From a virus (Duplodnaviria; Heunggongvirae; Uroviricota; Caudoviricetes), in IMG/VR virus record IMGVR_UViG_2721755676_000001: a stretch of 64,000 bases of DNA. One strand, 5' to 3'. The first letter of the stretch is position 1. Each line of letters opens with the position of its first letter. Position numbers and translations under genes: made by a program. The notes below the pieces were generated by a model. That model had not been told where the DNA came from. It saw only the letters and a program-made list of their open reading frames with translations, and searched no databases. Positions 48,599 through 51,514 of the stretch are shown one piece after another.

Positions 48599-49297
48599 AT
48601 GGATTGTAGCAATAAAATGGATGTAAAAATCACGATTTTGCAGGTTGATGTTGCCAACCTTCGCCCGAATACCTGGAACACCAATTCGGTTGGTGCGCAG
48701 AATTTCGAAAAACTGAAAGGTTCTATCGAAAAATTGGGCTTTTTTAAGCCAATTTTGGCTCGTGAACTTGAAGATGGATTTTTTGAAATCCTCGGCGGCG
48801 AACATCGCTGGCGTGCTGCTATTGAGCAAGGGATTTCAACGGTTCCGGTGCTTTCTGTGGGCAAAATTAGCGATGTCGTAGCTAAACAGATGTCACTGGT
48901 GGACAACGAGCGATACGGTGAAGACGACCAAATCGCATTGCAACGCTTCATTGAAGAAATTCAGTCAGAACTTGACTATCAACTGTCTGAAATCGCTCCG
49001 TATGACGACGAAATCTCGATGGTTTTAGCAAAAGAGGCGGCAATCGACCTTGAAGCACTGGAGGCGTTGTCTCGTGGTAGTGATGAGCCTGTCGATACCG
49101 ACAAACGAGAGAAAACCGAACGTGTGGGTGCGGAACATCAGACCATGCGCTTCAAAGTAACTTTCGATGCGTCAGATCGTGTTGCAGAAACCATAAAAAA
49201 CATCATCAAAGAGCAGGCTATTAACACCGGTAATGAAATGGAGAACGCTGGTGAGGCTCTGGTGTGGCTGGTCGACTACTACAAGGAGCGTATGTAA
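48599..49297 (+). CDS. ParB/Srx-domain protein 1 (alternative start 48617)
   Basis: ParB N-terminal domain pattern FEILGGEHRWRAAIEQGISTVPVL. Confidence 0.7.
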   Translation: MDCSNKMDVKITILQVDVANLRPNTWNTNSVGAQNFEKLKGSIEKLGFFKPILARELEDGFFEILGGEHRWRAAIEQGISTVPVLSVGKISDVVAKQMSLVDNERYGEDDQIALQRFIEEIQSELDYQLSEIAPYDDEISMVLAKEAAIDLEALEALSRGSDEPVDTDKREKTERVGAEHQTMRFKVTFDASDRVAETIKNIIKEQAINTGNEMENAGEALVWLVDYYKERM

Positions 49298-49965
49298 TGA
49301 CCAAAAAGTTTGAAATCGTATATCGCGACCCGGCAGATCTTATTCCCTATGAGATGAATGCCAAAAAGCATGATGAACAGCAGATCCGAGATCTAGCTGC
49401 AGCCATTAAAAAGCGCGGATTTGACCAGCCAATTACGGTCGATAAGAACGACGTAATTATTACTGGCCACGGCCGCCGTGAGGCTGCAATTTTTGCTGGA
49501 CTTGAGCGCGTACCGGTTATTGTTCGCGATGATCTCAGTGATGACGAGGTTCGTGCGAAGCGCCTTGAAGATAACCGACTTGCCAGCATTGATTACGATG
49601 CAATTAAGCTACAGAAAGAGCTTGAGTCGCTTGTTCTGGACGATATCGAGGTTTTCGGCTTTGAAGAGCGTGAGTTGAATGTTCTCGTTGGCAGTATGAC
49701 AGAAGAAATGGACACCGACTCGCTAGTTATCGATCTTGGCGAAGAAACTAAACGACAGAAGGATGAACACACCGAGATCAGTCGTGAAGTTGCAGCGGAA
49801 GAAGTACGTGTTGTCGACGTATTGGGCTTTAAAACGCTCCCTGCTGGCTCTGCCATTGTTGTTGGTGATTTGCTTGCCCACATGGAAGAAATGACGGGAG
49901 AAAGCGGGGTAGACGCATTTGTGGCATATGCGGAGAAGATCTCTTCCGGGGAGATGGCTGCATGA
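49297..49965 (+). CDS. ParB/Srx-domain protein 2
   Basis: ITGHGRREAAIFAGLERVPVIV; TAATG overlap with previous gene. Confidence 0.7.
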   Translation: MTKKFEIVYRDPADLIPYEMNAKKHDEQQIRDLAAAIKKRGFDQPITVDKNDVIITGHGRREAAIFAGLERVPVIVRDDLSDDEVRAKRLEDNRLASIDYDAIKLQKELESLVLDDIEVFGFEERELNVLVGSMTEEMDTDSLVIDLGEETKRQKDEHTEISREVAAEEVRVVDVLGFKTLPAGSAIVVGDLLAHMEEMTGESGVDAFVAYAEKISSGEMAA

Positions 49966-50627
49966 GCAAATACATCATCAAAGTATCGTTTCAGACACGC
50001 GTAAATAAAACCACTCGCACGTTGGAAATCGCTGAGTCGTTCGGGCTTGGCCTGGACGAAAAAGAGTGGACGCTTTACGACAATCTGGAGCTGGAAGTGA
50101 AGCAGGGCGATGTGGTGTACATCACCGGCCAATCCGGTTCCGGCAAATCCGTTGTGCTGCGCGAGTTGCAACGACAGATGAAGGATGAAGGGCTGTCTGT
50201 AGCCTCCATCGATGATTTTACCTTCGATAATGAGGTTAACGTCATCGATCAGTTGGGCAAAACGACCAGTGATGCGCTTGGGTTGTTATCTATGGCTGGT
50301 CTGAACGATGCATATCTGTTTGTTCGCAAGCCTTCTGAAATGTCAGACGGCCAGAAATATCGTCTCAAGATTGCCAAACTGATTGAGTCAGGCGCTAAAG
50401 TATGGGCTGCTGACGAGTTCGGCGCTGTTCTCGACCGTGTAACCGCTCAGGTTGTGGCGTCTAACCTCCAGCGTGCCGCTCGAAAGGTTGGTGCGACGGT
50501 AATGGTGGCGACGACTCACGAAGACCTGAAGAACGCGCTGCGCCCGGATATGCAGATCACCAAGCACTACAAAGAACGCGTGAAGGTGGAATATCACAAT
50601 GGTAGTCATGATGAGGTCCATTCATGA
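49962..50627 (+). CDS. Minimal ABC-type ATPase (221 aa)
   Basis: Walker A GQSGSGKS, signature MSDGQKYRL, Walker B VWAADEF, H-loop VATTHE; ATGA overlap both sides. Confidence 0.65.
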   Translation: MSKYIIKVSFQTRVNKTTRTLEIAESFGLGLDEKEWTLYDNLELEVKQGDVVYITGQSGSGKSVVLRELQRQMKDEGLSVASIDDFTFDNEVNVIDQLGKTTSDALGLLSMAGLNDAYLFVRKPSEMSDGQKYRLKIAKLIESGAKVWAADEFGAVLDRVTAQVVASNLQRAARKVGATVMVATTHEDLKNALRPDMQITKHYKERVKVEYHNGSHDEVHS

Positions 50628-51514
50628 CGGACATCATCATTAAACGCTACCGCCCTGAAGAGTTCCCGCGTCATCTGGACTTTCTGGAGCGAATGACTGT
50701 TACAAAGGGAACTGTAGAGGACTGGCACGCTCTTAAGTCGCTTCACTACAAAACAGACGGCAAACCTTTCGCGCCAACTTACTATCGCTGCGAACTTGAT
50801 GACCGTCTGGTGGGCGTCGTGGTTATGGCTTACCCGAAACTACTGCTGGCACCTCGCCACCGCATGTTTCCTAAGTTGAAACCAACCACTAATACCACCG
50901 TGGCTAACCAGTACTGGGGTCGGTACGTGAATAACAACTTTGCGGTGATCAGTCGCTCAGTTGTGGATACTCAGTATCGTGGCGTAGGCGTCTCTTATCG
51001 AATGATTAACCTGGTTAGCAGGATGCATGACCGGCCAATCATTGAGATCCAGTCCTCGATGAGCAAATACAATCCCTTCGCCATGAAAGCAGGGTTTAAG
51101 TTCATCCGCCCTGAGCGACCGAAGAGCTATGAAAGTGCACTGCGTGTATTCCAGCGCCATTTCCGTTCCGACCCGGGTGATAACGAGGCGATCGTCAAAG
51201 AGTTGTTCGCAATGAGCGAGTCTCGTCGTCGCCGTGCACTGCGTGATCTGGTGGCGGACTACCACAAGAACAGTTCCCTGGCAAAAGCTGGGCGGAATCG
51301 TGGCACGACGATTCAGGACATTGCCGACAGTCTGGTGGACGAGGCCAGCATTGTGAAGCTGCTCAAGGACATTCACAATCTGAGCTTTACGTCTCCGTTG
51401 TATGGTGTGTATCGAAACCCTGACTTTGGTCGTCGACTGCCTGACACGCTGCCACTGCTGGCATTCGACAAACAACCTTTGGATAAACCGTTAGAAATTG
51501 CTTTGCCGGCATAA
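50624..51514 (+). CDS. Hypothetical protein with N-terminal GNAT-like acyltransferase motifs (296 aa)
   Basis: VVDTQYRGVGVSYRMINLV (GNAT motif A-like) and KYNPFAMKAGFKFI (motif B-like). Confidence 0.5.
   Translation: MTDIIIKRYRPEEFPRHLDFLERMTVTKGTVEDWHALKSLHYKTDGKPFAPTYYRCELDDRLVGVVVMAYPKLLLAPRHRMFPKLKPTTNTTVANQYWGRYVNNNFAVISRSVVDTQYRGVGVSYRMINLVSRMHDRPIIEIQSSMSKYNPFAMKAGFKFIRPERPKSYESALRVFQRHFRSDPGDNEAIVKELFAMSESRRRRALRDLVADYHKNSSLAKAGRNRGTTIQDIADSLVDEASIVKLLKDIHNLSFTSPLYGVYRNPDFGRRLPDTLPLLAFDKQPLDKPLEIALPA

Follow-up and report, generated by a model that had tools for sequence, protein, structure and literature searches.

A conserved ParB-ParB-ABC-GNAT gene block ahead of the terminase genes of SSU5-type phage-plasmids and its possible role in DNA modification

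Two GNAT-fold enzymes that act on nucleic acids are precedents in principle for the locus described here. TmcA/NAT10 is an ATPase-coupled GNAT that makes N4-acetylcytidine in RNA. Mom of phage Mu is a GNAT-fold DNA modifier, an adenine carbamoylmethyl transferase that works without ATPase or ParB partners. Proteins of the ParB fold have been linked to enzymes as well. Phage ParBs that lack a helix-turn-helix (HTH) and consist of a nucleoside triphosphate (NTP)-binding domain and a C-terminal domain were shown experimentally to activate thymine dioxygenases on double-stranded DNA (dsDNA) (5mYOX, PNAS 2026, PMC13229309), and a ParB-acetyltransferase fusion that binds GTP was characterized in a survey of the ParB fold (PMC12704722). 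Genes for the post-replicative modification of phage DNA have ParB genes in their cluster in 27% of mined contigs and terminase genes in 19% (bioRxiv 10.1101/2025.08.14.668559). Here, we analyze a block of five genes, encoding two ParB-like proteins, an ABC ATPase, a GNAT-fold protein, and a small protein, in a 64,000-nucleotide stretch of viral DNA (IMG/VR record IMGVR_UViG_2721755676_000001), called the window below. The window has 1 mismatch in 64 kb to the E. coli plasmid pSLy3 (NZ_CP015915.1), which is an SSU5-group phage-plasmid. The block shares 99% identity with that of phage Cyrano and 86% with that of SSU5, and a database search found it in 772 plasmid records. The reading that we favor, tentatively, is that the block encodes a ParB-assisted, ATP-driven acyl-coenzyme A (acyl-CoA) transferase that would mark phage DNA late in infection. 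The domain families are known, and the ABC-GNAT fusion is annotated at the COG/PHROG level; the combined module is, as far as we found, previously unstudied.

All five genes lie on the + strand. ParB1 (48599–49297, 232 residues, PHROG 723) is followed by ParB2 (49297–49965, 222 residues, PHROG 930), a soluble, single-cassette ABC ATPase (49962–50627, 221 residues, PHROG 293), and a predicted GNAT-fold acyltransferase-like protein (50624–51514, 296 residues, PHROG 886). A preliminary description of the window had presented these four open reading frames (ORFs) as an operon with overlapping stop and start codons, and direct reading of the sequence bears this out: the junction of genes 1 and 2 is TAATG, a 1-nt overlap, and the junctions of genes 2 and 3 and of genes 3 and 4 are ATGA, 4-nt overlaps each. 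The true start of gene 2 is the ATG at 49297, rather than the upstream GTG at 49264 given in the ORF list. To the four genes so described we add gene 5 (51524–51790, 88 residues, PHROG 900), which starts 9 nt past gene 4. The four genes are real, and not chance ORFs: their protein sequences are conserved across hundreds of elements, and the catalytic motifs are kept at 25–60% identity.

That the ParB proteins probably work in physical association with the ABC-GNAT enzyme is best supported by natural fusions. A profile of gene 4 finds 890 relatives among 1.84 billion representative proteins. Many of these are 450–500 residues long, with the GNAT part at about residues 200–480 and an ABC cassette in front of it (Pfam: ABC_tran plus Acetyltransf). 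The gene 3 protein matches the N-terminal ABC half of the fused proteins with phmmer E values of 1e-41 to 1e-60, and in loci L088–L096, the same ORFs are matched by the ABC protein (in that range) and by the GNAT protein (1e-9 to 1e-19). Because both are homologous to halves of the same fused proteins, over their full length, genes 3 and 4 represent the fused family in split form. The family carries the database name ‘ABC-type ATPase fused to a predicted acetyltransferase domain’; it is of COG2401 type, with MK0520 as its prototype, and is known as a computational annotation only. With a fused member as the query, more than 2,173 relatives were retrieved, in viruses and in cells of bacteria and archaea. 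The window version differs from the fused proteins in being split into two coupled genes and in being preceded by two ParB genes. The connection with ParB is also found within single polypeptides: four proteins of 629–647 residues (P0430, P0437, P0457, and P0487) are ParB_N-ABC_tran-GNAT triple fusions, in which the order of the domains is that of the genes in the window. Thus, the ABC-GNAT fusions, the ParB-ABC-GNAT fusions, and the overlapping stop and start codons together argue that genes 1–4 encode one machine.

The fused family has members of unusual architecture. P0204 (1260 residues), P0176 (791), P0166 (847), and P0155 (665) include proteins with a PolB domain before ABC-GNAT, with a LAGLIDADG intein in the ABC cassette, and with a C-terminal TFIIB repeat, and P0192 and P0236 have N-terminal extensions of about 440 residues in which no domain was identified. 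No TerL-ABC-GNAT fusion was found among the long relatives. We found no solved structure of the ABC-GNAT family in the PDB and no experimental paper on the module or the family in the literature; an earlier computational mention may exist.

The ABC protein matches PF00005 with 50.1 bits against a cut-off of 25; a match to CbiA (E 0.002) is below threshold. Its Walker A (GQSGSGKS), signature (SDGQ), Walker B (ADEFGAVLD), and H-loop (TTH) motifs are kept in relatives at 50–61% identity, and with the catalytic Glu of Walker B and the D-loop, the features that define the ABC superfamily are all in place. The proposal of the preliminary description that the ATPase is of ABC rather than ParA type is thus correct. 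The protein does not look like part of an ABC transporter: by family matches, no permease was found among the block or its neighbors, membrane helices not having been predicted explicitly, and instead of pairing with a cognate transmembrane permease, the cassette is fused to GNAT and ParB in relatives.

The GNAT protein consists of a GNAT core at about residues 1–165, a helical region at 170–255, and a conserved terminal strand, ‘YGVYxNPD’. Its match to the Pfam GNAT models is marginal (14.4 bits against a cut-off of 23.6, E 0.037). Homologues, in contrast, exceed the Pfam cut-off: P0239 scores 41.5 bits on Acetyltransf_1 (cut-off 20.7), and P0236 scores 25.6. In an alignment of 39 sequences, motif A reads Y-R-G-x-G-x-x-Y-R, with R119 and G122 invariant, and motif B is visible as NPFAxKAGF; motif A is also present in the fused family. 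The alpha/beta fold is that of a GNAT. Despite the marginal score, then, the identification of gene 4 as a GNAT-fold protein, first made in the preliminary description, is secure, because both motifs are found in the alignment and relatives pass the Pfam thresholds. As for the precedents named above, TmcA/NAT10 is comparable in principle, by analogy, in that an NTPase drives a GNAT on a nucleic-acid base, and no specific relation to TmcA was found. Mom is among the fold matches of the GNAT protein, no better than dozens of unrelated GNATs, and no sequence similarity to it was found; a Mom-type enzyme was considered and rejected, as nothing specific relates the two beyond the shared fold.

The small protein of gene 5 matches phrog_900 (1.9e-45) and, weakly, LexA_DNA_bind, Sta1, and Lrs14, which makes it weakly winged-helix-like.

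Both ParB proteins pass the PF02195 cut-off of 26.3 bits, ParB1 with 49.9 and ParB2 with 35.2, in agreement with the two consecutive ParB/Srx proteins of the preliminary description. With the fold and the GxxR and (E/D)N boxes, they belong to the ParB/Srx superfamily. They are paralogues, 33% identical over 116 residues (E 6e-10). ParB1 matches phrog_723 (2e-79) and Spo0J (1vz0, 2.6e-9), and keeps GG.HR, DN.RYG.DD, and a C-terminal NAG.AL across 60 divergent homologues. ParB2 matches phrog_930 (1e-112). The nucleotide-binding boxes are kept in about 60 homologues at 25–42% identity: GG.HR and DN.RYG in ParB1, and N.K.H, GHGR, and R...N in ParB2. GG.HR and DN.R of ParB1 and GHGR and R...N of ParB2 are at least 95% conserved in 60–65 homologues, and N.K.H and GHGR are invariant among the aligned homologues of ParB2.

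Structure models were made of two of the proteins, ParB2 and the GNAT protein. The AlphaFold model of ParB2 (predicted local distance difference test, pLDDT, 78.5) has a confident ParB-CTPase N-domain, an ill-defined helical linker, and a confident three-helix C-terminal domain. In Foldseek searches with this model, only the N-domain (about 100–130 residues) aligns, to ParB-CTPgS, ParB-CDP, Noc, and KorB, with probability 1.00. No HTH was found in the ParB2 model, in which the region past the N-domain appears to be a different, novel helical domain. For ParB1, at the sequence level, there is only a weak alignment into the HTH region of Spo0J, without HTH features. By its modeled architecture, ParB2 resembles the ParBs of the 5mYOX system, which are also encoded beside their enzyme partner, with operon and fusion linkage. 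The two systems differ in that the partner there is an iron/2-oxoglutarate (Fe/2OG) dioxygenase and here is ABC-GNAT, in that there is one ParB there and two here, and in that modification is only proposed here. ParB2 also matches phrog_498, ‘DNA methyltransferase’ (1e-31), and PADLOC MTase_II (2.8e-17), in both cases over the ParB part. By these matches, it resembles the type of ParB found fused to DNA methyltransferases, another case of a ParB coupled to a DNA-modifying enzyme. In contrast to those fusions (PHROG 498; PADLOC MTase_II), the window block has no methyltransferase domain, and ParB is linked to the enzyme through the operon and, in relatives, as a fusion with ABC-GNAT.

Purifying selection on the catalytic motifs of every component leads us to expect a pair of NTP-binding ParBs, an ATP-hydrolyzing ABC dimer, and an acyl-CoA-using GNAT. 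The preliminary description recognized no named system in the block, and we likewise found no match in PADLOC, NCBIfam, Pfam, the PDB, or the literature. PADLOC-DB 2.0 gave only generic ATPase or ParB-part matches: the ABC protein matches mad3, mad8, PtuA, and BrxD over the ATPase motifs only, and there are no matches for the GNAT protein, gene 5, or gene 6. NCBIfam has no specific family for these proteins, only sub-threshold ParB and transporter models, and sequence and profile searches of the PDB gave nothing for the GNAT protein and generic cassettes only for the ABC protein.

How constant the block is was analyzed in 80 IMG/VR loci in which the GNAT protein is 47–78% identical to P0110, a relative 42% identical to the window GNAT protein (one locus carries the query itself). 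The neighborhood counts come from our own ORF calling and from phmmer and hidden Markov model (HMM) searches, with Pfam checks on a sample. In the window, the block lies between a UvsW-like DEAD/ResIII helicase gene, upstream and divergent (46975–48534, − strand; Pfam ResIII, DEAD, Helicase_C), and the packaging genes. Downstream are a gene for a predicted TerS-like DNA-binding protein (51986–52618, + strand, PHROG 867), the TerL gene (52618–53874, + strand; Terminase_6N/6C, phrog_2, phrog_10250), which overlaps it by 1 nt, and the portal gene. The four genes were rightly placed upstream of the packaging genes in the preliminary description; gene 5 and a 195-bp spacer, which we add, intervene. 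The helicase, ParB1, ParB2, and ABC genes are all present in each of the 61 loci with enough upstream sequence, and TerL follows the block in each of the 69 loci with enough downstream sequence; the gene order is constant across these divergent loci. A gene 5 homologue was detected by phmmer in 26 of the 69. The four genes thus do occur together outside the element in which they were first noted, in 61 of 61 divergent viral contigs as well as in the ABC-GNAT and ParB-ABC-GNAT fusions.

The block is not confined to phage-plasmids. With the same neighbors, it recurs across several unrelated hosts: in an Ectothiorhodospira contig, in a prophage in a 3.3-Mb metagenome-assembled chromosome, and in cultured virulent siphoviruses of 106–122 kb, the hosts of which are Pseudomonas (for nickie and relatives), Rhizobium (for RHEph10 and others), Stenotrophomonas, and Xanthomonas. 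In loci L003 and L004, nickie, and RHEph10, the helicase is again upstream of the block, and there is a small ORF at the gene 5 position. The phages of this set form one syntenic clade; therefore, the pattern is strict conservation and not independent association. In relatives, the ABC/GNAT junction, a 4-nt overlap in the window, is an insertion hot spot for small unrelated genes. The insertions include SSU5_128, L003 8961–9999, nickie gp156, and RHEph10 gp079–080; Phage_gp49_66, a RyR-domain protein, and DUF2829 are examples.

Outside this clade, ABC-GNAT keeps company either with terminase or with restriction-modification (R-M) genes. In Planctomycetota contigs, ABC and GNAT are split or fused; a ParB_N protein comes after them in four loci and TerL in three, and L103 is the one locus with both. 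The gene order in these contigs is unlike that of the window, but the linkage is kept. A second sample comprises 80 viral contigs with a fused gene (L136–L215), the closest genomic relatives of which are metagenome-assembled genomes (MAGs) of Bathyarchaeia and Nitrososphaeria; their taxonomic origin is judged by these relatives. TerL was found in 52 of these 80 contigs and lies no more than 150 bp upstream of the ABC-GNAT gene in 42 of the 80. In archaeal MAG contigs, TerL, a Mu-type portal, and a capsid protein are found around the fused gene (Pfam). No ParB was detected in the 80 contigs with our own iterated HMM; hence, ParB is an add-on in some lineages and not universal. The contigs end within 1 kb downstream of the fused gene in 39 of 80 cases (19 of them inside the gene) and within 1 kb upstream in 2 of 80; this strong asymmetry suggests that genomes end, or assemblies break, directly after the gene. 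The prophage of Desulfofarcimen acetoxidans DSM 771 (L300; CP001720.1, 4075498–4094892) has the fused gene after the integrase gene and shortly before TerL and portal. Between them are genes for Amidoligase_2, a 136-residue ORF, a GGACT/AIG2-like protein, and a SocA_Panacea-domain protein, so that enzymes of peptide and amide-bond chemistry adjoin the acyltransferase gene. In an approximately 512-kb contig judged archaeal from its gene content (L304–L306), ABC-GNAT is the penultimate gene of an apparent provirus; a SNase-domain gene overlaps its end, and host genes follow directly.

The triple fusions are found in archaeal-type chromosomal contigs, one of which has the markers eRF1 and FTR, and they come after two small genes that overlap. 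R-M genes are their immediate neighbors in three separate genomic settings. The first has type I HsdR, HsdS, and HsdM; in the second, an N6_N4 methyltransferase carrying NmeDI_C is accompanied by an Mrr_N gene and by a protein with a borderline EVE domain; and the third has a Type ISP/MmeI-like enzyme. No terminase was found near the triple fusions in these contigs. Thus, viral versions are found at terminase genes and cellular versions at R-M genes. In L301, the gene that follows the triple fusion (11023–11871) has the borderline EVE domain, a PUA-like reader of modified bases (21.6 bits against a cut-off of 23), and is itself followed by the gene for the N6_N4 methyltransferase with NmeDI_C, which has 841 residues.

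We propose the following mechanism. The four genes, probably with gene 5, would encode one nucleoprotein enzyme, in which the products of genes 3 and 4 would together make up an ATP-driven GNAT acyltransferase, one half each. ParB1 and ParB2, which probably pair as a heterodimer through the shared C-terminal domain, would serve as an NTP-gated clamp or activator that brings ABC-GNAT to dsDNA and holds it there. Binding and hydrolysis of ATP by the ABC dimer would drive substrate engagement, and the GNAT would then acylate either DNA, for instance at an exocyclic base amine, or a target bound to DNA; the simplest case would be acetylation from acetyl-CoA. Virion DNA would thereby gain a mark, for protection or identity, that is set while the DNA is being packaged or shortly before. 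Since the block heads the packaging and head gene cluster, we infer that it acts on replicated phage DNA near the time of packaging. DNA is the best-supported substrate because ParB2 is of the methyltransferase type, because of the 5mYOX precedent, the clustering of ParB and terminase genes with modification genes, and the ParB-acetyltransferase fusion, and because of the R-M company of the cellular versions. Defense or anti-defense, which the preliminary description listed as one of its candidate functions, may be the biological purpose of such a mark, with anti-restriction as the presumed benefit. Widened to the whole family, the proposal becomes a new post-replicative DNA modification machine, in which an ABC-powered GNAT, delivered by NTP-gated ParB clamps, acylates DNA, and which would be shared by tailed viruses of bacteria, probably those of archaea, and cellular R-M islands. 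In viruses, the machine would be coupled to terminase and mark DNA during packaging; in cellular R-M islands, it would mark self from non-self. We put this wider form forward as possible, though doubtful.

Several observations weigh against an enzyme that marks DNA. No recognizable DNA-binding domain was found in ParB1 or ParB2. The ABC domain resembles transporter-type cassettes and not the DNA-binding ABC clades SMC, Rad50, UvrA, and MutS. The fold matches of the GNAT protein are generic, headed by N-acetyltransferases of small molecules and of proteins, including Naa10, Naa80, RimI, and dopamine NAT, with Mom only in 16th place. No DNA modification of SSU5-type, Nickievirus, or RHEph10-type phages is reported in the literature searched. 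Finally, a direct role in packaging fits the core-gene status of the block (61/61) and the abutment of TerL (42/80) equally well.

In such a packaging role, the ParBs and ABC-GNAT would assist terminase, whether in the recognition or processing of cos or pac, in stimulating or timing TerL cleavage, or in remodeling concatemer DNA, and the GNAT would be regulatory or structural. There is a comparable case in HK97 gp74, an HNH protein that stimulates or times TerL cleavage and whose gene closes the genome map, immediately ahead of terminase. The likeness to gp74 and similar accessory nucleases is one of genomic position before terminase; the folds differ, and the ParB proteins here have no established nuclease motif or activity. 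The invariant position of the block ahead of a structured spacer, the TerS-like gene, and TerL speaks for such a cofactor, as do core-gene behavior typical of morphogenesis genes and the Planctomycetota loci, where ABC, GNAT, ParB, and TerL are reordered yet linked. So do the ends of sequences: contigs with the fused gene tend to stop right after it, suggesting a genome end, and the SSU5 and Cyrano records stop in the spacer after the block. However, TerL relatives at 35–45% identity to the window TerL work in small phages without the module, and therefore the module is dispensable for packaging as such. The triple fusions, moreover, have R-M genes and not terminase as neighbors. Since the acyl-CoA motif and all the ATPase motifs are under purifying selection, real chemistry is expected rather than a structural role, and we know of no packaging system with a GNAT or an ABC cassette. 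On balance, we regard a packaging cofactor as rather unlikely. The chemistry, on the other hand, could be directed at protein. Possible targets are components of the virion, portal, or terminase, nucleoid proteins, and host factors, and the enzyme may itself be packaged and injected, in the manner of the P1 Dar/Ddr anti-restriction proteins or T4 Alt. The nature of the best fold matches is consistent with this, and so is the position of the block, from which late expression with the head genes is presumed. In addition, GNAT and ParB-like domains occur in capsid-delivered polyvalent proteins, P1 DdrB being a head protein with a ParB-like domain (PMC5512222). Among the relatives examined, however, there is no signal or fusion to capsid-targeting or polyvalent-protein domains, so that nothing specific supports injection, and both the R-M genes beside the cellular versions and the resemblance of ParB2 to the methyltransferase type indicate DNA instead. 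A protein-directed acetyltransferase is, in our judgment, also an unlikely reading.

The remaining explanations assign the block to the lysogen or the plasmid. A defense or exclusion system, with ParB and ABC sensing foreign DNA and the GNAT as effector, would agree with the defense-island-like R-M neighborhoods of the triple fusions, with the type I R-M system in the window itself, and with partial PADLOC matches of the ABC protein to mad3 and mad8 of MADS and to PtuA-type ATPases. However, no PADLOC system matches, the ABC matches cover generic cassette motifs only, and the GNAT protein has none. Defense cargo is usually variable, whereas the block is invariant in position and content, virulent phages included, and it lies with the packaging and head gene cluster, presumably repressed in a lysogen. 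We therefore consider this improbable. Still less credible, and in our view very improbable, is an atypical partition or segregation module, another candidate of the preliminary description, in which ParB-like centromere binders would work with an ABC motor in place of ParA. What suggests it is that a low-copy phage-plasmid encodes an ATPase together with two proteins of the ParB family; in addition, the SSU5 ‘parB’ serves as a marker gene for the SSU5 group. The ParBs do share with ParABS and with the KorB and Noc clamps the ParB-CTPase fold of the N-domains and the GxxR and (E/D)N boxes. Identity with ParABS was nevertheless rejected: there is no adjacent ParA or ParA-binding context, the ATPase being an ABC cassette that is fused to GNAT in relatives; a central HTH is missing from the ParB2 model, and in ParB1 no HTH features were seen at the sequence level; no parS was found, although no search aimed at it was made; and the block is not restricted to segregating replicons, as it occupies the same place in the virulent phages nickie and RHEph10, where it is a core component, and in chromosome-integrated prophages (L004 and L300). 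Furthermore, pSLy3 has a ParA-type locus of its own, outside the window (NZ_CP015915.1, 36964–37991; L007, 11365–12392), with a 222-residue ParA/MipZ-type ATPase (MipZ 7e-14, AAA_31 9e-14) and a 117-residue partner gene, which is likely the true partition locus of the plasmid prophage. The preliminary description, then, was right that this is not a canonical parAB locus, and its partition candidate is disfavored.

The flanks of the block contain sequences that may control it. The 64 bp between the helicase gene and ParB1 (48535–48598) are a candidate divergent control region, with a TATAAT and the 11-mer ATAATAAGTAA at 48577–48587. At no more than one mismatch, this 11-mer occurs 6 times in the window against 0.86 expected: at 48577–48587, 51834–51844, 28108–28118, and 37016–37026 and, on the − strand, at 6513–6523 and 55390–55400. 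Exact copies are present on both sides of the five-gene block, and three intergenic copies have TTTTGT upstream and GTG.TTAC downstream in common. These shared flanks suggest that the sites form a class of phage promoters or operators. Between gene 5 and the TerS-like gene, the 195-bp spacer (51791–51985) is highly structured. It contains a near-perfect, AT-rich palindrome of 55 bp (51815–51869, centered on 51843), with inverted repeats and an exact ATAATAAGTAA, and, on the + strand at 51907–51967, just before the TerS-like gene, AAACAAGTTG in two copies (51908 and 51933) and, after these, a terminator-like GC hairpin (51946–51967). The palindrome may be an operator, a terminator, or a cos or pac element. 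The linear SSU5 and Cyrano records both end 62 bp past the gene 5 homologue, a point that corresponds to about 51852 of the window, inside the palindrome; the shared end point may be convention rather than biology.

The left part of the window holds accessory cargo and the plasmid replicon (6–3023, 3917–5425, 7792–9006 on the − strand, and 9407–10606 on the − strand), with genes for a type I R subunit, a group II intron reverse transcriptase/maturase, a RepB-family replication initiator, and an IS91 transposase. The type I M and S genes are just outside the window. An ApbC/Mrp-type iron-sulfur carrier ATPase (33607–34707, − strand) and a full-length methionyl-tRNA synthetase, metG (34865–36898, + strand), are also encoded. 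No tRNA genes were found in the window and no Rfam families in 45000–54000. A link to tRNA-Met, considered in view of metG in the window and a tRNA-Met near the nickie block, was dropped as unsupported.

SSU5-type phage-plasmids are common in clinical Enterobacteriaceae. What the block does is directly testable, because fusions, invariant synteny, and cultured hosts (E. coli, Salmonella, Pseudomonas syringae, and Rhizobium) are at hand. If the block writes a mark on DNA, it would represent a new phage DNA modification chemistry and a second example, independent of the first, of a DNA-modifying enzyme with ParB-fold cofactors, with a bearing on the evasion of restriction and BREX, on host range in phage therapy, and on sequencing artefacts. 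If the mark is an acyl group, an enzymatic N-acylation route would be added, and the ParB fold and the transporter-type ABC cassette would each have a new job. If the proteins are terminase cofactors instead, they would constitute a new component of the packaging machinery in a large group of tailed viruses.

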